Positions 1 to 5,886 of a stretch of DNA of 5,886 nt are shown here, piece after piece; the stretch's first letter is position 1, and each line of letters starts with the position of its first letter. A model generated the notes under the pieces. That model had not been told where the DNA came from, searched no databases, and saw only the letters and a program-made list of their open reading frames with translations. Source of the DNA: a virus; the IMG/VR virus record IMGVR_UViG_3300045988_004583, positions 1 to 5,886 of that record; one strand, 5' to 3'. The translations under genes and the position numbers were made by a program.

Positions 1-141
1 GATACTATATGGATGGCACCCTGACGACTTAAAACCAATACACAAGCTGTCAAGACACGGTCATTACACAAGTGATAAGCTGATAAAAATCTGGGGACAA
101 GGGGCAGTCGACATCGCACAGGCAACACCAGAGACATATAA
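1..141. repeat. Terminal direct duplication, left copy (circular-genome assembly overlap)
   Basis: Base-by-base comparison shows 1-141 (gatactatatggatggcaccctgacg...caccagagacatataa) is identical to 5746-5886. The duplication lies inside one continuous reading frame (rep). Confidence 0.95.
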
Positions 142-529
142 TTACGTTGCGGGGTATGTGACCAAAAAACTGTACGGCAACGACAAAAAGCGTTACCAAA
201 AAATGGGTTTAATACCACCATTTTGCACAATGAGCCGAAAACCGGGACTTGGAGACAAATGGTTCCAAGAGCACCAAGAAAAACTCTGGCAGCAGGGATA
301 CATACAGCTCACCAACGGCAAGAGAGCAGCCATCCCAGAATACTACTGGCGAAAACTGGAAGCTGAAAATCCCGAAAAAGCATGGAGAATCAAAAAATAT
401 CGGCAGGAAAAAGCCATAGCGTCCTTAATCGAGAGAAACGCGGAAACCGATAAACCATACGCAGAGCAACTAAAGGACAAAGAAGCATCCATGTCCAAAA
501 AGATGAGCAAAGCCAAAGGCGTATTTTGA
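1..529 (+). CDS. VP4: Replication initiation protein VP4 (HUH rolling-circle endonuclease), C-terminal portion; continues from 5255..5745 across the circular junction
   Basis: The frame is open from position 2 (codons ata cta tat gga tgg...) with no stop until TGA 527-529. It is the same frame as track ORF 158..529, whose GTG 'start' is internal. It encodes ...ILYGWHPDDLKP...ETYNYVAGYVTKKLYG..., and YVAGY (Tyr codons 143-145 and 155-157) is the Y-x3-Y active-site pair known from phiX174 protein A. Joined to 5255..5745, the complete protein is 339 aa. Confidence 0.93.
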   Translation, partial: ILYGWHPDDLKPIHKLSRHGHYTSDKLIKIWGQGAVDIAQATPETYNYVAGYVTKKLYGNDKKRYQKMGLIPPFCTMSRKPGLGDKWFQEHQEKLWQQGYIQLTNGKRAAIPEYYWRKLEAENPEKAWRIKKYRQEKAIASLIERNAETDKPYAEQLKDKEASMSKKMSKAKGVF

Positions 530-587
530 CACATTGGTGTCACTCAGCCAAGTAACTATCAAGTAAGCTACTTGGCTGAGTATTTTT
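527..587 (+). terminator. Tandem hairpins plus T-tract: rho-independent terminator after VP4
   Basis: Hairpin 1 is TGACAC(527-532)/GTGTCA(537-542) with loop attg, and it includes the VP4 stop codon. Hairpin 2 is a perfect 13-bp stem, ACTCAGCCAAGTA(542-554)/TACTTGGCTGAGT(569-581), with a 14-nt loop, followed by aTTTTT (582-587). Confidence 0.75.
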
Positions 588-600
588 ACCATTTATTGGA

Positions 601-641
601 ACACGCACGCACGCGCACGAAATCGCGCACATGCGCGCGTG
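601..641. repeat. GC-rich alternating purine/pyrimidine island (two tracts)
   Basis: 601-619 acacgcacgcacgcgcacg (19 nt) and 624-641 cgcgcacatgcgcgcgtg (18 nt) both alternate Pu/Py perfectly and are separated by aaat. CGCGCAC is directly repeated at 612-618 and 624-630. CACGCGC(610-616) is complementary to GCGCGTG(635-641). Confidence 0.8.
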
Positions 642-684
642 ATTATTATTATTTATTATTTATTTGTTGTAGTCGTAGTAGTAG
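642..684. repeat. Simple trinucleotide-periodic repeat (ATT/TTA)n then (GTA/GTC)n
   Basis: attattattatttattatttatttgttgtagtcgtagtagtag, read directly from the sequence. Confidence 0.8.
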
Positions 685-695
685 GGAGTGTTGAA

Positions 696-779
696 ATGTT
701 GATAACAATGAATAATTATCCTTGGAACGATATTTTTTTACTGATTTTAATGTTGATACTCTTGTGGATAAGTTGTTGA
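696..779 (+). CDS. Candidate 27-aa hydrophobic peptide (MLITMNNYPWNDIFLLILMLILLWISC); hypothetical
   Basis: ATG 696 is preceded by the SD-like GGGAG (684-688) at 7-nt spacing, and the stop is TGA 777-779. It is below the ORF-track size cutoff. The hydrophobic core runs from I13 to I25. No dedicated promoter was found, and the region is T-rich and repeat-rich, so the ORF could be fortuitous. Confidence 0.25.
   Translation: MLITMNNYPWNDIFLLILMLILLWISC
763..771 (-). promoter_or_regulatory. Perfect consensus DnaA box (TTATCCACA on minus strand)
   Basis: The + strand reads tgtggataa, whose reverse complement TTATCCACA is the canonical high-affinity DnaA box. Neighbouring repeat copies differ from TTWTNCACA by 1-3 positions, for example 697-705 -> TTATCAACA and 847-855 -> TTTTCAACA. 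Confidence 0.6.
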
Positions 780-800
780 ATTGTTGAAAGTGTAGCAAAA

Positions 801-820
801 TGCACAAAACCATTTGTGCA
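801..820. promoter_or_regulatory. Perfect 8-bp inverted repeat (TGCACAAA-acca-TTTGTGCA): operator-like palindrome or ssDNA hairpin
   Basis: 801-808 TGCACAAA, loop 809-812 acca, 813-820 TTTGTGCA. It sits between the third and fourth repeat pairs. Confidence 0.6.
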
Positions 821-861
821 ACTTTTAGTGGAAAACTTGTTGAAAGTGTTGAAAACGCAAT

Positions 862-935
862 TAGAGGCAGCTCGGCAGCTGGCCGAAAAGTTGCGTCATG
901 CTCTTCGCACGGCGCACCGCGCCTAGCGCATGACC
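862..935. other. Second GC-rich structured island (tandem GGCAGCT, nested inverted repeats)
   Basis: GGCAGCT occurs twice, at 866-872 and 874-880. GTCATGC(894-900) is complementary to GCATGAC(928-934). The hairpin GGCGC(911-915)-acc-GCGCC(919-923) is nested inside that pair. The island is embedded in AT-rich surroundings. Confidence 0.6.
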
Positions 936-972
936 TACAAGGCAAAATTCTTCTAATTTTTTTCAAAAAACC

Positions 973-1001
973 TTGACTTTATCGAAAAAATATGGTAGAA
1001 T
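973..1001 (+). promoter_or_regulatory. Strong sigma70/SigA-type promoter P1 with extended -10
   Basis: TTGACT (973-978), a 17-nt spacer, then TAGAAT (996-1001) with TG at 993-994 (TGnTAGAAT). An A/T-rich UP-like tract (aattcttctaatttttttcaaaaaa) lies upstream. The first gene's SD is ~10 nt downstream. Confidence 0.75.
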
Positions 1002-1027
1002 AAATCATAGAAAGGAAGGTGCTAAAG

Positions 1028-1213
1028 ATGACACACTACTACGAACTTAGAAGTATTGAAGATGACGGAACAATAAAGATTGCGCTCAAAATCTCAGCAG
1101 AACCAAAATACGCAAAACAAAGAGCAAAAGAATACGCAAAACGAAACCCGGGGCTATACTCACTAGAAAGAGTCGAAAAAGTGGCAATGTACTTAACTGA
1201 AAAGGAGAACTAA
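1028..1213 (+). CDS. Hypothetical small protein, 61 aa (accessory ORF A)
   Basis: ATG 1028 follows the SD AAAGGAAGG (1011-1019) at ~8 nt. The track's GTG at 1019 lies inside the SD and is unlikely to be the start. The protein MTHYYELRSIEDDGTIKIALKISAEPKYAKQRAKEYAKRNPGLYSLERVEKVAMYLTEKEN matches no family I recognise. It is the first gene after P1 and is tightly packed with the next ORF. Confidence 0.6.
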   Translation: MTHYYELRSIEDDGTIKIALKISAEPKYAKQRAKEYAKRNPGLYSLERVEKVAMYLTEKEN

Positions 1214-1214
1214 C

Positions 1215-1403
1215 ATGGAAAACACATTCAAAGATTTCAGCACCGAAGAACTCAAAAAAATGAAATACGAATGGAAACACTGCAACGGACGTTGTGAAGA
1301 ATGCAAGTTCAAGCGAATAGACTACCACTGCAGAACGGTATACGACGAAATCAAAAAAGAAATAAAAAGGAGAGAATCCAGAGACGTAGAAAAGAGGGCT
1401 TGA
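1215..1403 (+). CDS. Hypothetical Cys-rich small protein, 62 aa (accessory ORF B; putative metal-binding)
   Basis: ATG 1215 follows the SD AAGGAG (1202-1207) at 7 nt, one nt after the upstream stop (taa c atg). The motif is H22-C23-x3-C27-x2-C30-x7-H38-C39, with charged Lys/Glu-rich flanks. A hairpin and T11 follow immediately. Confidence 0.65.
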   Translation: MENTFKDFSTEELKKMKYEWKHCNGRCEECKFKRIDYHCRTVYDEIKKEIKRRESRDVEKRA

Positions 1404-1421
1404 CAGGCCCTTTTTTTTTTT
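1391..1421 (+). terminator. Rho-independent terminator after accessory ORF B
   Basis: GGGC(1396-1399) pairs with GCCC(1407-1410). The inner pairs are T1400:G1406 and T1401:A1405, with loop gac. The stem can be extended by A/T pairs (1391-1395 with 1411-1415). An uninterrupted T11 run follows (1411-1421). The GC core is short, so strength is uncertain. Confidence 0.55.
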
Positions 1422-1429
1422 AGTATAAT
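1400..1429 (+). promoter_or_regulatory. Consensus sigma70-type promoter P2 (TTGACA-18-TATAAT) overlapping the terminator
   Basis: TTGACA at 1400-1405 is a perfect -35, an 18-nt spacer consists mostly of the T-tract, and TATAAT at 1424-1429 is a perfect -10. It lies upstream of the structural-gene block. Confidence 0.7.
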
Positions 1430-1510
1430 AAAGACAGTTAAACGGCGAGAAAGTGCTATCTTTTACAAACGCCATTTATACAAAATAATCTTAGAAAGAG
1501 GTGAACCGCT

Positions 1511-1633
1511 CTGACCTTCAAAGAAATCAACGCGCTGTTTAACCAAATCCGCAAGATCTTAGCTATGCTAGACAAGATTTATCACATGTTGGAGAACAAA
1601 GAAAACGAGTTCCAGACCTTCAACGGAGACTGA
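1511..1633 (+). CDS. Candidate 40-codon ORF with possible CTG start (…TFKEINALFNQIRKILAMLDKIYHMLENKENEFQTFNGD); hypothetical
   Basis: The strong SD AAAGAGGTGA (1495-1504) has no ATG/GTG/TTG at proper spacing. CTG 1511 lies 7 nt after GAGGTG and opens a frame that runs to TGA 1631-1633, 12 nt before the next gene's ATG. The only in-frame ATGs (1565, 1586) lack an SD. Confidence 0.3.
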   Translation: MTFKEINALFNQIRKILAMLDKIYHMLENKENEFQTFNGD

Positions 1634-1645
1634 GAGAGGCCAAAA

Positions 1646-1867
1646 ATGAAAACATGGAACGTAAGAGACCAGACCGATACGAACCTCATGGAGGAACTGA
1701 CGCGAACCTACAAGGAGATCGACGCCGCATACAAGCTGCTACGACAGGCCGCAAAGTACGACGACGCAAAATTTTACCTTGACATGATATTCCGTAAAAA
1801 GGCAAAAGCAACGGAAATTGAGGTGGAAATCCTCAGAAGGGAAATCAACCATGGGAAAGAGGAGTAA
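1646..1867 (+). CDS. Hypothetical protein, 73 aa (predicted helical)
   Basis: ATG 1646 follows the SD AGAGAGG (1633-1639) at 6 nt. Its end overlaps the next ORF by 17 nt. It is on the coding strand in a compact gene array. I recognise no family. Confidence 0.6.
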   Translation: MKTWNVRDQTDTNLMEELTRTYKEIDAAYKLLRQAAKYDDAKFYLDMIFRKKAKATEIEVEILRREINHGKEE

Positions 1868-1970
1868 AGTCCACAAGACCAAAGACGCAAAAATCTACAA
1901 CAAGACCGCACGAAAGACCAAGGCAATCAACCTTGGAAGCGGAGCAATGCGAGGAGGCATCCGACTGTGA
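1851..1970 (+). CDS. Small highly basic DNA-binding/packaging protein, 39 aa (phiX174 J / gokushovirus ORF8-VP8 analogue)
   Basis: It is not in the ORF track because it is too short. The span from ATG 1851 to TGA 1968-1970 encodes MGKRSKVHKTKDAKIYNKTARKTKAINLGSGAMRGGIRL, with 8 Lys, 4 Arg and a single acidic residue. From memory, the C-terminal MRGGIRL-type ending and the position upstream of VP3/VP1 match the small basic proteins of gokushoviruses. Confidence 0.7.
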   Translation: MGKRSKVHKTKDAKIYNKTARKTKAINLGSGAMRGGIRL

Positions 1971-2209
1971 GCACCAATGTATATGGCATCTTCGACACCT
2001 GCGTGATGGGCTATATCACCATCTTAACCGAACGCGAAGATAAAGTGGCAGAGCGTAACTTTAAGATCGCGCTGACCGACGAACACAACATCATGAGCAA
2101 AACGCCAAGCGACTACCGGCTTGTAAAGCTGGCAAAATTCGACGAAAAAACCGGCCTGTTTGAAAACGAAAAGGAGAACATCTTCGATGGCATTTCGCTC
2201 AATAAGTAA
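1967..2209 (+). CDS. Small nonstructural protein, 80 aa (VP5-like, putative)
   Basis: GTG 1967 follows the SD GAGGAGG (1951-1957) at 9 nt and overlaps the upstream stop as GTGA. The pattern ..YGIFD..(x)..AERNF......P.DY.LV.LA.FDE.TG.F resembles, from memory, a conserved small protein found between rep and VP3 in gokushovirus genomes. Confidence 0.6.
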   Translation: MSTNVYGIFDTCVMGYITILTEREDKVAERNFKIALTDEHNIMSKTPSDYRLVKLAKFDEKTGLFENEKENIFDGISLNK

Positions 2210-2681
2210 CTGGAGACAGACCGCAACGACGAAGCCGACCGAGGCCGGAGAAAGTGTAAGGCGAACATATCTCTGGGAACGCAACGAAAAAGGCGAAAAG
2301 GTGCTGAGGCTTGACCAGACGATTGACCAGCAGGCCGAAATCGACAGCTATCTCGAAGAAACCAAGCTGGAAAACATCATCCGGCGGGCAAGCATCGATC
2401 CGGACATTGCGGCACGACTCGTACCAGACATGGGAAACGGAATCCAAGACTACACCGAAGCACCGCAGACACTGGCGGAACTCCAAAACATCATGCTGAG
2501 GGCGGAACAGATTTGGGAAGAGGTGCCGAAAGACATCAAGCTCAAATTTGATAACGATGTCGATAAATTTATTGCATCGTTTGGCACAGTCGAATGGGCG
2601 AAAAATCTGGGCATCTACAAAGAAAAGCAGGCCGAAGCCGAAGGAACTAAGAAAGCAGAAGGAACGGAGGCCAAACAGTGA
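2187..2681 (+). CDS. VP3: Internal scaffolding protein VP3 (164 aa from ATG 2187)
   Basis: ATG 2187 follows the SD AAGGAG (2171-2176). The track's upstream TTG at 2160 has no SD. The protein is acidic and helical, and its C-terminal ...VPKDIKLKFDNDVDKFIASF... resembles the conserved VP3 C-terminal region. It lies directly upstream of VP1 and overlaps it by 4 nt, the typical gokushovirus synteny. Confidence 0.75.
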   Translation: MAFRSISNWRQTATTKPTEAGESVRRTYLWERNEKGEKVLRLDQTIDQQAEIDSYLEETKLENIIRRASIDPDIAARLVPDMGNGIQDYTEAPQTLAELQNIMLRAEQIWEEVPKDIKLKFDNDVDKFIASFGTVEWAKNLGIYKEKQAEAEGTKKAEGTEAKQ

Positions 2682-4369
2682 ACAGAAACAAAGACGCAGG
2701 ATTCAACCAAGTACCGCGGCTGGACATCACACGAAGTCGATTCAAAAGACGGCAAGATGTCAAACTGACGTTAAACGCAGGACAGCTTATCCCGTTTTAC
2801 GTCGATGAAGTGTTACCGGGTGATACCTTTAGCATCGACCAAGCAGCTATCATCCGCATGACAACGCCAATCTTTCCAGTCATGGATAACTGTCACATGG
2901 ACATTTATTACTTTAATGTCCCATGTCGCATCCTTTGGGAACACTTCAAGCGCTTTATGGGTGAGAACGACACTGGGCCGTGGGCACAAACTCAGGAGTA
3001 CACCATTCCGCAAATCAAAATAACTGGTACGGCGGAAAAACCAGCACCATACGAAGGAAGCATCATGGACTACATGGGCATTCCTACCAAAGTGAGCAAG
3101 GGGGAGGACACCGCCTTCAGCGTAAACGCACTTCCTTTCCGCGCTTACGCCATGATATGGCAGGAGTGGTTCAGAGACCAAAACGTGGACAATCCGGCCA
3201 TAAACAGCACCGCAGACGCGACCGTGAATTATACGGACGACGAAACCAAGGGAATGGACGCGGCAACACCGGATTTGGAGTACATTCTGCAAAACGCATA
3301 CACGGGCGGCAGGCCTCTGCCTGTCAATAAGTACCACGACTACTTCACATCGGCTTTGCCTTCCCCTCAGAAAGCGGGAGAACCGGTTACAATTCCACTA
3401 ATCGGAAATGCACCTGTGAAGATGTACGCCAACAAAGAACTAAGCAACCCAATGCCACTAACGGGAGGAAACACAGCCCACGCAGTAACAAATCTGAAAG
3501 CAAACGCCAAAAGTGTAATCGACACCACGCAGGACCCTATGAGCGGGCTCATTGCGAACATCGGCTCAATGGATTTTACGGGATACATGGGAGCGGAACT
3601 GAACAACGTTACAAGTGCAACCATCAACCAACTGCGGCAAGCATTCCAAGTACAAAAATATTACGAAGAACTCGCACGCGGCGGCAGCAGATACCGTGAA
3701 ATGATTTATTCGCTGTTTCATACCAAAATCAGCGATAAAACGGTACAGATACCGGAGTACCTAGGCGGCACGAGAATCACCATCAACATGAGTCAGGTTA
3801 TCCAGACCAGTGGCACGACCGCAGAGAGTCCGCAGGGCAACACGGCAGCAGTGAGCGTAACGCCGTACAATGGCAGTATGTTCACCAAGAGCTTCGAAGA
3901 ACACGGTTTTGTTATCGGTGTATGCTGCATCCGACATGACCATACATATCAGCAGGGTCTCGAACGGATGTGGAGCCGGAAAACCAATCTGGATTTCTAT
4001 TACCCGGTCTTCGCAAATCTGGGAGAGCAAGCTATCCTTAAAAAGGAGCTGTATCTCACCGGCACCGCAACGGATGAACAAGCATTCGGCTACCAAGAGG
4101 CATGGGCAGAATACCGTATGAAACCAAACAGAATCAGCGGCAAATTCCGCAGCAATGCAACGGGAACGCTGGACAGTTGGCACTACGGCGACAACTACAC
4201 GAAAACGCCAAGCCTCAGTCAGGCATGGATGAAAGAGGGAGACTCCGAAATTCAGAGAACTCTGGCAGTCGACAATGAACCTCAGTTTATCATGGACACG
4301 GTCATTGACAACACCAGCGTCAGACCTATGCCTATGTACAGTATTCCGGGACTCGTCGACCATCACTAA
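2678..4369 (+). CDS. VP1: Major capsid protein VP1 (F-like jelly-roll), 563 aa
   Basis: GTG 2678 follows the SD GGAGG (2666-2670) at 7 nt. The N-terminus NQVPRLDITRSRFKRRQDVKLTLNAGQLIPFYVDEVLPGDTF is the hallmark Microviridae capsid N-terminal signature, and its length is typical of gokushovirus VP1. It is the longest ORF and is followed by a strong terminator. Confidence 0.95.
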   Translation: MNRNKDAGFNQVPRLDITRSRFKRRQDVKLTLNAGQLIPFYVDEVLPGDTFSIDQAAIIRMTTPIFPVMDNCHMDIYYFNVPCRILWEHFKRFMGENDTGPWAQTQEYTIPQIKITGTAEKPAPYEGSIMDYMGIPTKVSKGEDTAFSVNALPFRAYAMIWQEWFRDQNVDNPAINSTADATVNYTDDETKGMDAATPDLEYILQNAYTGGRPLPVNKYHDYFTSALPSPQKAGEPVTIPLIGNAPVKMYANKELSNPMPLTGGNTAHAVTNLKANAKSVIDTTQDPMSGLIANIGSMDFTGYMGAELNNVTSATINQLRQAFQVQKYYEELARGGSRYREMIYSLFHTKISDKTVQIPEYLGGTRITINMSQVIQTSGTTAESPQGNTAAVSVTPYNGSMFTKSFEEHGFVIGVCCIRHDHTYQQGLERMWSRKTNLDFYYPVFANLGEQAILKKELYLTGTATDEQAFGYQEAWAEYRMKPNRISGKFRSNATGTLDSWHYGDNYTKTPSLSQAWMKEGDSEIQRTLAVDNEPQFIMDTVIDNTSVRPMPMYSIPGLVDHH

Positions 4370-4383
4370 ACACGAAAGGGGGA

Positions 4384-4414
4384 AAGCCCGGGGCAAAACC
4401 CCGGGCTTATTTTT
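4384..4414 (+). terminator. Rho-independent terminator/attenuator after VP1
   Basis: A perfect 10-bp GC-rich stem AAGCCCGGGG(4384-4393)/CCCCGGGCTT(4399-4408) with loop caaaa, then aTTTTT (4409-4414). It abuts the VP2 ATG at 4415. Confidence 0.8.
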
Positions 4415-5254
4415 ATGGGACTCTTAACAACGATAGGAATACCATTGCTCAAGCAAGCAATACCAACAATCGCAAGCTGGGGCATAAACAAGCTTTTAGG
4501 CGGCAATATGTCCGAAAGCAGCGGCGGCAGTACGCAGCACAACGAGAGCAGCAGCAGCGGCGGCGGACAGAGCCAAAGCGAGAGCGGAGTAAACCGAGAA
4601 CAAAACTTACAGGACTGGAACAATATGCTTGGAGCAATCCAAGAAAATATGAAAAGCCAGCAAAAATTTAACCGCCGAAGCATGTATGAGCAGATGGGGT
4701 ATAACACCATGGCAGCAATCACACAAGGTGTGTATAACCAGATAAGCAACAATGCAGCGATGAGCTACAACAGCGCAGAAGCGGCAAAAAATCGAGCATG
4801 GCAAGAGCAAATGAGTAACACCGCATATCAAAGAGCGGTGGAAGATATGCGCAAAGCGGGAATCAATCCTATCCTAGCATACCAGCAAGGCGGGGCAAGT
4901 ACACCGGGCGGAGCACAAGGCACTATCAGCGGGGCAAGTATGGGACTTGCAAGCAGTAGTGCAGCAAGCGCAAGCGCTCTTGGAGTAAGCCAAAACCACA
5001 ACAACACATGGAGCAAATCAGAATCGGCATGGTACAACGCGGCGCAAGCAGTCGGAGACGCAACAAGCTGGCAACACACAAGTGCAGACAAAGCGTTTAA
5101 CGCGTTCAAGAACATCTTCAATGACCTGAGCAGCCTCAATGCCGGAACAGGCGGCGCAGGAAGAAAACCAACCAAAGATGAGCTCGAATACAAGCCGGGA
5201 AGAGACTTCATCGGGAGCAAAAACGTCGAATTTTGGAAAGGAAAACTTAAATAA
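4415..5254 (+). CDS. VP2: DNA pilot / minor capsid protein VP2, 279 aa
   Basis: It has a hydrophobic Gly/Ile/Leu-rich N-terminus, a Ser/Gly/Gln low-complexity linker, and the conserved core ...AWQEQMSNTAYQRAVEDMRKAGINPILAY... typical of Microviridae VP2/H-type pilot proteins. It lies immediately after VP1. Confidence 0.85.
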   Translation: MGLLTTIGIPLLKQAIPTIASWGINKLLGGNMSESSGGSTQHNESSSSGGGQSQSESGVNREQNLQDWNNMLGAIQENMKSQQKFNRRSMYEQMGYNTMAAITQGVYNQISNNAAMSYNSAEAAKNRAWQEQMSNTAYQRAVEDMRKAGINPILAYQQGGASTPGGAQGTISGASMGLASSSAASASALGVSQNHNNTWSKSESAWYNAAQAVGDATSWQHTSADKAFNAFKNIFNDLSSLNAGTGGAGRKPTKDELEYKPGRDFIGSKNVEFWKGKLK

Positions 5255-5886
5255 ATGGGATGCAATAAACCGTTAATCCGGTTTTATGTACCTCATGACA
5301 GAGAGGCGAGTGGGCGGGTGTACTCACTCGCCTCTTTTAACGAGATACACAAGACCAAATTGACCTACGAAAATTTAATGTACCGCAAAGATGTAATGTT
5401 GATACCATGTGGACAATGCACCGGATGCAGACTACGCAAGCGAAAGGACTGGAGCACACGGATGGAGCTGGAAGCATACGGCCACAGCAAAGAAAGCATC
5501 TGGTTTATAACACTGACTTATGACGATGACCATGTGCCAACGCAGGACACAGAAACAGGCGAAATCTACAAAGGCGGTGTAAACGTCTGGAAAGGCACCT
5601 CAGAGCGTCCAAGAACGGCGCAAACACTGAGTATAGAGGAAACTCAACTATTTATCAAAAGGCTCAGAAAGGCCGTAAAAGATCCTATAAGATACTTTTT
5701 AGCAGGTGAGTACGGAGACAACACAGCAAGACCACACTACCACATGATACTATATGGATGGCACCCTGACGACTTAAAACCAATACACAAGCTGTCAAGA
5801 CACGGTCATTACACAAGTGATAAGCTGATAAAAATCTGGGGACAAGGGGCAGTCGACATCGCACAGGCAACACCAGAGACATATAA
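5255..5886 (+). CDS. VP4: Replication initiation protein VP4, N-terminal portion (runs off window; continues at 1..529)
   Basis: ATG 5255 directly abuts the VP2 stop (TAAATG). The frame stays open to the window end, so it is absent from the ORF track. It encodes MGCNKPLIRFY...IPCGQCTGCRLRKRKDW...IWFITLTYDDDHVP...YFLAGEYGDNTARPHYHMILYGWHP. CGxCxGCR, FxTLTYD and the HUH motif (HYH, 5735-5743) are the canonical Microviridae Rep motifs. Confidence 0.93.
   Translation, partial: MGCNKPLIRFYVPHDREASGRVYSLASFNEIHKTKLTYENLMYRKDVMLIPCGQCTGCRLRKRKDWSTRMELEAYGHSKESIWFITLTYDDDHVPTQDTETGEIYKGGVNVWKGTSERPRTAQTLSIEETQLFIKRLRKAVKDPIRYFLAGEYGDNTARPHYHMILYGWHPDDLKPIHKLSRHGHYTSDKLIKIWGQGAVDIAQATPETY
5302..5338 (+). 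promoter_or_regulatory. Terminator-like 11-bp hairpin plus T4 inside the 5' end of VP4 (attenuator or ssDNA structural element)
   Basis: AGAGGCGAGTG(5302-5312) is perfectly complementary to CACTCGCCTCT(5325-5335) across a 12-nt loop, and the sequence continues as ...CTCTTTT (to 5338). It begins 47 nt after the VP4 start codon. Confidence 0.55.
5746..5886. repeat. Terminal direct duplication, right copy (circular-genome assembly overlap)
   Basis: Identical to 1-141. The implied unit genome length is 5745 nt, within the Microviridae size range. Confidence 0.95.

Follow-up and report, generated by a model that had tools for sequence, protein, structure and literature searches.

Microviruses, the textbook example of a minimal rolling-circle replicon, rank among the most abundant phages of the human gut, with hosts and lifestyles that are largely unknown. 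The closest described counterparts of the element reported here come from bacterial chromosomes. The basal unwinding system (BUS) of bacterial origins is made up of DnaA boxes, DnaA-trios and an AT-rich region, as in incC of B. subtilis (Richardson 2016; PMC6669920; PMC8287927). A BUS has at least three trios (3'-NAN-5', consensus 3'-GAT-5') at most 16 bp from a box, with the GAT type nearest the box; tandem boxes are the commonest arrangement, with a spacer of 10-13 bp (PMC8287927). In Firmicutes, the DnaD recognition element is defined by two or more 5'-TnnT-3' motifs on the complement of the trio strand (PMC10201434). Here we analyse a gokushovirus genome given as a window of 5,886 nt (positions 1 to 5,886 of IMG/VR virus record IMGVR_UViG_3300045988_004583; the window is this whole stretch). 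Between its Rep gene, VP4, and a block of small open reading frames (ORFs) lies a long noncoding gap, of which positions 641-857 probably represent a host chromosomal origin module carried by the virus, one that would recruit host DnaA to the double-stranded replicative form. Judged by its parts, it is a module of the type found in the dnaA-dnaN spacer of gut Clostridia such as Oscillospiraceae, Ruminococcus and Clostridium.

Layout of the cassette and its bacterial counterparts

An earlier note on this DNA, made from the letters alone, had listed simple repeats and 9-mer repeats as separate features of the gap. The simple repeats (ATT-type at 641-663, GTA/TAG-type at 664-684) and the 9-mers are parts of one cassette of about 212-217 nt (641-857), which is laid out as follows.

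641-663: AT-rich tract, candidate DNA-unwinding element (22 of 23 bases A+T)
664-684, + strand: DnaA-trio-like repeats, TTG TTG TAG TCG TAG TAG TAG (5'-TAG-3' = 3'-GAT-5')
685-705, + strand: GGAG spacer and tandem DnaA-box variants, TGTTGAAA (689-696) and TGTTGATAA (697-705)
706-750: variable spacer with short local palindromes that differ by lineage (57% pairwise identity)
751-790, + strand: second box cluster, all in one direction, TGTTGATAC (751-759), TGTGGATAA (763-771), TGTTGAAT (773-780) and TGTTGAAAG (782-790)
801-820: palindrome, TGCACAAA-ACCA-TTTGTGCA
827-857, + strand: third box cluster, AGTGGAAAA (827-835), TGTTGAAA (838-845) and TGTTGAAA (847-854), and the end of the cassette

The box-like motif TGTKGAWA occurs eight times in the window, where 0.78 copies are expected and none of 200 shuffles reaches eight; seven of the eight copies fall within 689-854, and all are on the + strand. 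The repeats are close to the DnaA-box consensus TTATCCACA (= TGTGGATAA), with a perfect box at 763-771 and a single mismatch to TGTGGATAA in the TGTTGATAA box at 697-705. There are seven TAG-type trios: TAG TAG TAG (676-684) sits 4 bp from the proximal box, with four trio-phase triplets upstream, and the upstream tandem box is set 12 bp from the first trio (TGTTGAAA + GGAG). In its trios, tandem boxes and 12-bp spacer the cassette thus agrees throughout with the published BUS pattern, in the polarity of B. subtilis. Beyond the trios lies the AT-rich tract, in the position that such a tract occupies in bacterial dnaA-dnaN origins. On the strand opposite the trios, CTACTACTACGACTAC contains TACT twice, i.e. 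at least two 5'-TnnT-3' motifs, as the DnaD recognition element is defined (PMC10201434). The location departs from the bacterial pattern: the cassette is not beside dnaA or dnaN. As it does not lie at a chromosome origin, we file it as an oriC-like element and not as a chromosomal origin.

The similarity extends to individual bases. The validated B. subtilis scaffold oHM558 reads TAGTAGAAGTAATAGTAG-GGCC-TGTGGATT-TGTGGATAA (in full TAGTAGAAGTAATAGTAGGGCCTGTGGATTTGTGGATAA; PMC8287927), and phage positions 667-705 read TTGTAGTCGTAGTAGTAG-GGAG-TGTTGAAA-TGTTGATAA (in full TTGTAGTCGTAGTAGTAGGGAGTGTTGAAATGTTGATAA), with the same polarity and register. In ungapped comparisons with published modules, the phage stretch is identical at 33 of 39 positions to C. 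botulinum, at 32/39 to C. acetobutylicum, with which it shares the upstream box and the GGAG spacer, at 29/39 to B. subtilis and at 26/36 to S. aureus. The C. acetobutylicum module, 3'-AATAGTTGT-TTAGGTGT-GAGG-GATGATGAT, has the layout of the phage together with the 12-bp spacer, and origin boxes of the T-variant type are given for Clostridium, Ruminococcus and others, the R. albus AAAAGTTGT being equal to TGTTGAAAA (PMC8287927).

A degenerate 31-nt signature spanning trios, spacer and boxes, GTAGTAGTAGNNNNTGTKGAAANGTTGAWWA, was scanned over 596 Gb of bacterial genomes, for which the number of specified bases leads us to estimate well below one match by chance. The scan returned 35 bacterial matches, all in Firmicutes (Oscillospiraceae, Ruminococcus, Clostridium, Lachnospiraceae, Selenomonas, Veillonellaceae and others). 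All 35 loci directly adjoin dnaN and/or dnaA, genes that Pfam confirmed in four of them, so that, within the bacterial scan, the signature is exclusive to chromosomal origins. In IMG/VR it has at least 120 matches, and all 80 of the matches listed are contigs of 4.2-6.2 kb.

Similarity to the bacterial origins also continues beyond the signature. Phage cassettes match Oscillospiraceae-type dnaA-dnaN spacers at 68% over 202 nt and their box clusters at 71-72% over ~130 nt. In an unbiased k-mer count, TGTTGAAA is the top 8-mer in 29 of 29 phage modules and in 13 of 13 Oscillospiraceae-type origins; the ratio of T to G at box position 4 is 0.83:0.17 in the former and 0.85:0.15 in the latter, and both prefer box spacings of 9 and 11 nt. 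The boxes of the 29 phage modules are almost uniform in direction (206 on the + strand vs 2 on the - strand); bacterial origins have some inverted boxes too.

Two other explanations of these repeats touch on the same comparisons. The TGTTGAAA repeats and the invariant CTTGTTGTAG..GTAGTAGTAGG could be iterons, that is, binding or nick sites of VP4 or of a small phage protein, with a coincidental or secondary likeness to oriC. This would account for the 22-mer being more invariant than bacterial trios are, and for AACTTG, present at the AT/trio boundary of most relatives and reminiscent of what we take to be the phiX/pC194 nick motif CTTG/ATA. We regard it as highly improbable. The specificity of the 31-nt signature for dnaA-dnaN origins (35/35), together with the whole multi-part layout that is common to them, makes coincidence very unlikely; moreover, the cassette hardly changes even where VP4 identity is down to 35-57%, unlike co-evolving pairs of Rep and iterons. 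The k-mer analysis revealed no second repeat family besides the DnaA boxes, though a phage protein may also read the phage-specific, invariant CTTGTTGTAG.

Alternatively, the similarity might serve as a homology patch through which the phage recombines into the origin region of the chromosome. Stretches of 36-40 nt are indeed 92-97% identical to host origins. Such homology is short, however, the 35 origin loci are free of microvirus genes, and nothing else points to lysogeny, so that we give this idea almost no credence. A prophage or integration site was likewise dismissed, as phage genes are missing from all 35 bacterial loci. Inspection by eye revealed no dif-like XerCD site, for which no formal scan was made.

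As a separate observation, a canonical-box module, (TAG)n-NNNN-TGTGGATATGTGGATAA, occurs in ten larger IMG/VR contigs (8-275 kb; L216-L225), and the fetched loci of these contigs contain no dnaA or dnaN. They may represent origin-like modules in larger phages or phage-plasmids, or mis-binned host DNA.

Conservation, orientation and flanking elements

Relatives were collected as 80 VP4-anchored IMG/VR genomes plus additions from a pattern scan, 161 distinct genomes in all. At least 147 of them retain the cassette, at VP4 identities as low as ~35%. Phage records in GenBank, 45 in number, likewise contain the region, and for several of these megablast can align nothing else. Where VP4 is only ~57% identical, the conserved parts are a hairpin after VP4 and the core at ~650-855.

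The gap as such is real: VP4 ends at 529 and the next supported start is at 1019 or 1028, which leaves 489-498 nt, 8.5% of the genome. The alignment of relatives that the earlier note had proposed as a check shows the region to be kept, neither freely variable nor coding, and the view that the gap holds no convincing gene stands, since no ORF stays open in relatives and none has a protein-family match (zero Pfam or PHROG matches). The best candidate, of 27 aa, is interrupted in 25 of 77 close relatives; the frames of 58 aa and 105 aa remain whole in just 1/30 and 0/27, respectively. We have therefore discarded the hydrophobic 27/46-aa frame (696/639-779) as a lysis peptide, as stops or frameshifts interrupt it in many close relatives and other sequence takes its place in the distant ones, and likewise the unconserved 58-aa (+) and 105-aa (-) ORFs as genes. 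A search of the whole window against Rfam (E <= 1) gave a single spurious long noncoding RNA match outside the gap and no known RNA family.

An alignment of 29 non-redundant cores has the order AT-rich tract, invariant TTGTTGTAGnnGTAGTAGTAGG, short G-rich spacer, tandem TGTKGAAA/WGTTGAWAA boxes, free spacer and two same-direction box clusters. The mean pairwise identity is highest in the trios (94%), which with 16 of 21 invariant columns (76%) form the most conserved block of the region, followed by the box clusters with 84-89%. In the AT tract it drops to 57%, with a conserved composition (89% A+T), in the spacers to 55-57% and in the flanks to 39-49%. Among the box clusters, 751-790 has 86% identity and 55% invariant columns and aligns with the box clusters of Oscillospiraceae origins; 827-857 reaches 89%. 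The spacer 706-750 is replaced outright in distant relatives, and the right arm of the palindrome, TTGTGCAA, is conserved even where another small hairpin takes the place of the left arm. The distal trio block CTTGTTGTAG (664-672; TTTGTTGTAG in the window) is invariant in the phages, and bacterial origins usually have AATAGTAG or similar.

This gradient of constraint is what a working origin module would show. It also bears on the possibility that the cassette is a DnaA sponge: without any origin firing, the multicopy replicative forms would soak up DnaA, block host initiation and free replication resources. About nine same-direction boxes per genome would suit such a role, which could be played in any orientation or position. 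In B. subtilis, chromosome initiation is inhibited by cloned DnaA-box regions of oriC (incA/B/C), and titration of the datA type is well known. Titration, however, needs only double-stranded boxes. It leaves unexplained why the most conserved block consists of single-strand-binding trios, in register with tandem boxes and beside an AT tract, and as these trios are the most constrained part, the pattern argues against a mere sponge for DnaA. We thus consider this reading unlikely, though worth keeping in mind.

The orientation of the cassette is not fixed. It is direct after VP4 in 139 genomes, inverted at the same place in six and inverted between VP2 and VP4 in two, so that eight of 147 genomes, from at least three lineages, carry it in reverse. 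What is inverted is a precise unit of 212 nt, with the AT tract at one end, the last box at the other and collinear flanks on both sides; its right breakpoint is just past the last box, and the breakpoints lie in GC-rich, GCGC-palindromic sequence without a long inverted repeat. Orientation is fixed within each lineage of the noncoding region, a recombinase gene is absent, and the inverted type of noncoding region occurs in different genome backbones. The genomes L081 (inverted) and L131 (direct) are 92% identical genome-wide, and their noncoding regions differ throughout (~79-90%), which indicates that types of noncoding region are exchanged by recombination. An active inversion switch appears unlikely, because this closest direct/inverted pair differs over the whole noncoding region and hence shows no recent flip. 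Independence of orientation and position fits a double-strand element and contradicts a strand-specific single-stranded DNA (ssDNA) signal.

The latter point is important for the complementary-strand origin proposed in the earlier note. In such an origin, structures of the packaged strand would prime the conversion of ssDNA to the double-stranded form, as in phiX174 PAS, G4 oric, M13 and plasmid sso. The elements that matter here flank the core of the cassette.

537-588, + strand: hairpin 3' of the VP4 stop (ssDNA fold -14.9 kcal/mol, z = -5.8), with near-invariant GGTGTCAC (537-544), a 16-bp stem (542-557/566-581), near-invariant loop-side CTATCAAGTA (557-566) and a T-run (583-588)
600-640: GC-rich island 1, alternating purine/pyrimidine (CG/CA)n with a short A/T loop; left cassette boundary
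858-935: GC-rich island 2, local hairpins; right cassette boundary, lineage-specific
973-1001, + strand: sigma-70/SigA-type promoter, TTGACT-17-TAGAAT, TG-extended

A conserved, covarying hairpin (542-581) and GC-rich, hairpin-prone islands around the core would be in keeping with a complementary-strand origin, as would the fact that the 5'-TAG-3' trio strand is the gene strand in 139 of 147 genomes. The folds themselves argue otherwise. Only 530-598, with the hairpin 542-581, is more stable than shuffled sequences (z = -5.8), which upholds the description of the gap as densely structured for this part and for no other: the GC islands (z = -0.9 and -1.6) fold only as their composition predicts and their sequences are unconserved, so that they were rejected as conserved structures; the stretch 745-860 has z = -0.7, and the core 641-750 (minimum free energy -1.2 kcal/mol, z = +1.3) is less structured than its shuffles. 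An unstructured core is expected for an unwinding region. In addition, boxes that all point in one direction cannot pair with each other, inverted boxes that could do so are lacking, and the cassette is inverted in at least three lineages. A complementary-strand origin formed by the hairpins is thus not supported for the core, and as an explanation of the cassette we hold it to be very unlikely. For the flanking hairpins (542-581 and those of the GC islands), a priming or ssDNA role is possible.

The hairpin after VP4 deserves attention of its own. The earlier note had called it a tandem-hairpin terminator; one strong hairpin is present, and the second is a trivial 3-bp stem. With its stem-loop (542-581) and TATTTTT, 13 nt 3' of the VP4 stop, it has the form of an intrinsic terminator. 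In 86 distinct homologues, changes on one side of the stem are compensated on the other (CAGCC/GGCTG, CCGCC/GGCGG and CGGCC/GGCCG; CCAAG/CTTGG and CCCAG/CTGGG), and the loop motif is invariant. This invariance suggests an additional role beyond that of a terminator; the hairpin is terminator-shaped and probably also a recognition site, which may be one for VP4 or for priming. All 123 genomes with the motif, of 160 examined, have it on the gene strand, and it never flips with the cassette; it usually lies 27-86 nt 3' of VP4 (maximum 477). In the clade with ~45% VP4 identity the exact motif is missing, although the cassette is present. On the opposite strand the loop CTATCAAGTA reads TACTTGATAG and includes CTTGATA, which we take to be the nick motif of phiX174 gpA and the pC194-family Rep proteins. 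As CTTGATA is on the strand opposite the genes, a phiX-type nick site in the loop was rejected; the motif may mark a VP4 origin or priming site.

Neither GC island is conserved in sequence. Island 1 (49% pairwise identity, zero invariant columns) keeps its composition and stays put when the cassette inverts; island 2 has 39% pairwise identity, and in the clade with ~57% VP4 identity its position is taken by other sequence. The promoter is more constant. It is followed by a Shine-Dalgarno site (AGGAAGG) and the first small ORF (GTG 1019 / ATG 1028); a TTGACA...TAnAAT promoter is at the equivalent place in five distant relatives (L079, L074, L086, L088 and L131), and every clade inspected has a TTGACA/TAnAAT promoter ahead of its first small ORF.

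The position of the cassette between the VP4 terminator and this conserved promoter raises the question of whether it is a DnaA-sensing regulatory region, in which bound DnaA would couple the promoter (973-1001) or VP4 read-through to the replication or growth state of the host. DnaA is a known transcription regulator. The last box, however, is ~120 nt upstream of the -35 element, the cassette can point either way and, in some genomes, is separated from the promoter by VP4, and regulation needs neither trios nor an AT tract. We therefore judge this explanation to be quite improbable.

All features named by the earlier note are present in the gap (hairpin, GC-rich islands, simple repeats, 9-mer repeats, palindrome and promoter), and its idea of a hub for replication and regulation is supported; the repeats are best read as parts of a host-type, DnaA-dependent double-strand origin module.

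Proposed mechanism and genomic setting

If the cassette acts as a host-type origin module, the following sequence of events can be envisaged. Once the phage DNA has been converted to the double-stranded replicative form, host DnaA would bind the roughly nine same-direction boxes, and DnaA at the tandem boxes (689-705) would nucleate an ATP-DnaA filament on the TAG trios (664-684). The filament would open the AT-rich tract (641-663), the TnnT motifs of the opposite strand would be offered to DnaD, and the host helicase would be loaded (DnaD/DnaB/DnaI). The phage might gain a DnaA-dependent start or boost of double-stranded replication beside the rolling-circle replication by VP4, and would compete with the host origin for DnaA. 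The hairpin/terminator after VP4, the two GC-rich boundary islands and the promoter for the downstream genes are separate flanking elements.

The role of the module is uncertain. It could be an extra origin for amplification of the replicative form or for plasmid-like persistence, or it could act in DnaA titration, in DnaA-dependent regulation or in exposing the VP4 nick site. An extra origin is favoured, because trios and AT tract are kept in register. Going further, it is conceivable, if tentative, that in a large clade of gut gokushoviruses with a working copy of the host origin the replicative form is a DnaA-dependent theta minichromosome that replicates in step with the host cell cycle. 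This would be a second mode of replication in Microviridae and would allow a plasmid-like carrier state without integration, with VP4 rolling-circle replication reserved for virions.

Several points weigh against an origin module borrowed from the host. Binding of DnaA and opening of the cassette are predictions from sequence. Most boxes are one position off TTATCCACA, and their identity as DnaA boxes is deduced from their position in host origins, not from biochemistry. CTTGTTGTAG..GTAGTAGTAGG is more invariant than bacterial trios are, a hint of a further reader of this stretch, possibly a phage protein. Orientation is skewed (139 direct vs 8 inverted) and may not be neutral, and the census is clade-biased. 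Titration by the boxes or DnaA-dependent control of transcription would explain much of the same data. Microviruses are, to our knowledge, thought to need only Rep and the helicase and polymerase of the host, and we know of no requirement for an extra origin. The host assignment, too, is drawn from resemblance between sequences: SigA-type promoters and strong Shine-Dalgarno sites (AGGAAGG, AAGGAG) at 973-1030 and 1195-1217, together with the origin look-alike, point to Firmicutes, and within these most likely to Clostridia such as Oscillospiraceae, Ruminococcus or Clostridium.

As the first 141 bases recur at the end (1-141 = 5746-5886), the window represents a circular genome of 5,745 nt. Its nearest matches are gokushoviruses from human, pig and monkey gut (~81-86% identity, megablast), and all of its genes are on the + strand.

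5255 across the junction to 529, + strand: VP4 (Rep), Pfam REP_ORF2-G2P
1967-2209, + strand: VP5
2187-2681, + strand: VP3
2678-4369, + strand: VP1
4415-5254, + strand: VP2

Further features were seen outside the gap. A 62-aa ORF (1215-1403) with spaced cysteines and one histidine (CNGRCEECKFKRIDYHC) resembles a small zinc-binding protein; its sole PHROG match is marginal and of unknown function (E = 0.004). A second regulatory junction, smaller than the gap, lies directly 3' of this ORF: at 1388-1429 a terminator-like hairpin and its T-run overlap a promoter of perfect consensus (TTGACA-18-TATAAT, 12/12). Near the N-terminus of VP2, a Ser/Gly-rich low-complexity stretch is encoded by an imperfect direct repeat of 33 nt (4517-4585, 73%).

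Comparison with known replication systems

The earlier note knew of no equivalent in gokushoviruses, and our search agrees: in open-access full text we found no paper that joins gokushovirus, Microviridae or microvirus with DnaA boxes or oriC, and by title and abstract no phage-borne module is apparent in the DnaA-trio papers listed. If our interpretation is correct, microviruses use the one noncoding region of any size that they have to engage DnaA, the master initiator of the host, outside the phiX174 paradigm. This could explain how integrase-less gut microviruses persist, and an unannotated gap in hundreds of database genomes becomes a testable element. A sequence-based host predictor for the clade would also be within reach, because the phage variants of boxes and trios match Clostridial origins. 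In practical terms, vector design and studies of replication would gain a natural, portable and minimal (~212 bp) origin module of the Clostridial type.

Theta origins such as P1 oriR and those of pSC101, F and RK2 combine host DnaA boxes by an AT-rich region with an own Rep that binds separate iterons. Like the phage, these mobile elements carry DnaA boxes beside an AT-rich region, with which they recruit the host initiator. None of them copies a chromosomal trio module, however, and in the phage no separate iteron set was seen, the only initiator being a rolling-circle HUH-type nuclease. A plasmid origin was rejected, as blastn found no match among the 72,556 plasmids of PLSDB.

Complementary-strand origins (phiX174 PAS, G4 oric, M13 ori(-), plasmid ssoA/ssoU and the A site of the ABC primosome) are strand-specific folded structures, and the DnaA-box hairpin of the A site uses DnaA. 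As noncoding replication signals of small ssDNA replicons they are comparable to the cassette, and the A site shares the use of DnaA; the phage core differs from them in being unfolded, in lacking a paired box and in occurring in both orientations. DnaA-titrating loci, i.e. datA of E. coli and the DnaA-box clusters of B. subtilis (PMC2533591), similarly bind the initiator at clusters of boxes away from the origin, but they lack a trio array and an AT tract in the register of a BUS, and they are chromosomal regulators, not viral ones.

It is the bacterial BUS that the cassette resembles most closely in its parts, which come in the same order, polarity and spacing and are identical to the published modules of C. 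botulinum, C. acetobutylicum and B. subtilis at 29-33 of 39 positions, with further same-direction box clusters as in Oscillospiraceae dnaA-dnaN spacers and with TnnT motifs on the opposite strand. Unlike its bacterial counterparts, the phage module resides in a 5.7-kb ssDNA phage, is compact (~212 nt), bounded by GC islands, invertible and movable, has boxes that nearly all point in one direction, and carries a phage-specific, invariant CTTGTTGTAG in its trio block. DnaA-dependent origins are known; a complete module of the chromosomal type, carried as an invertible cassette by a rolling-circle ssDNA phage, is new as far as we have found.

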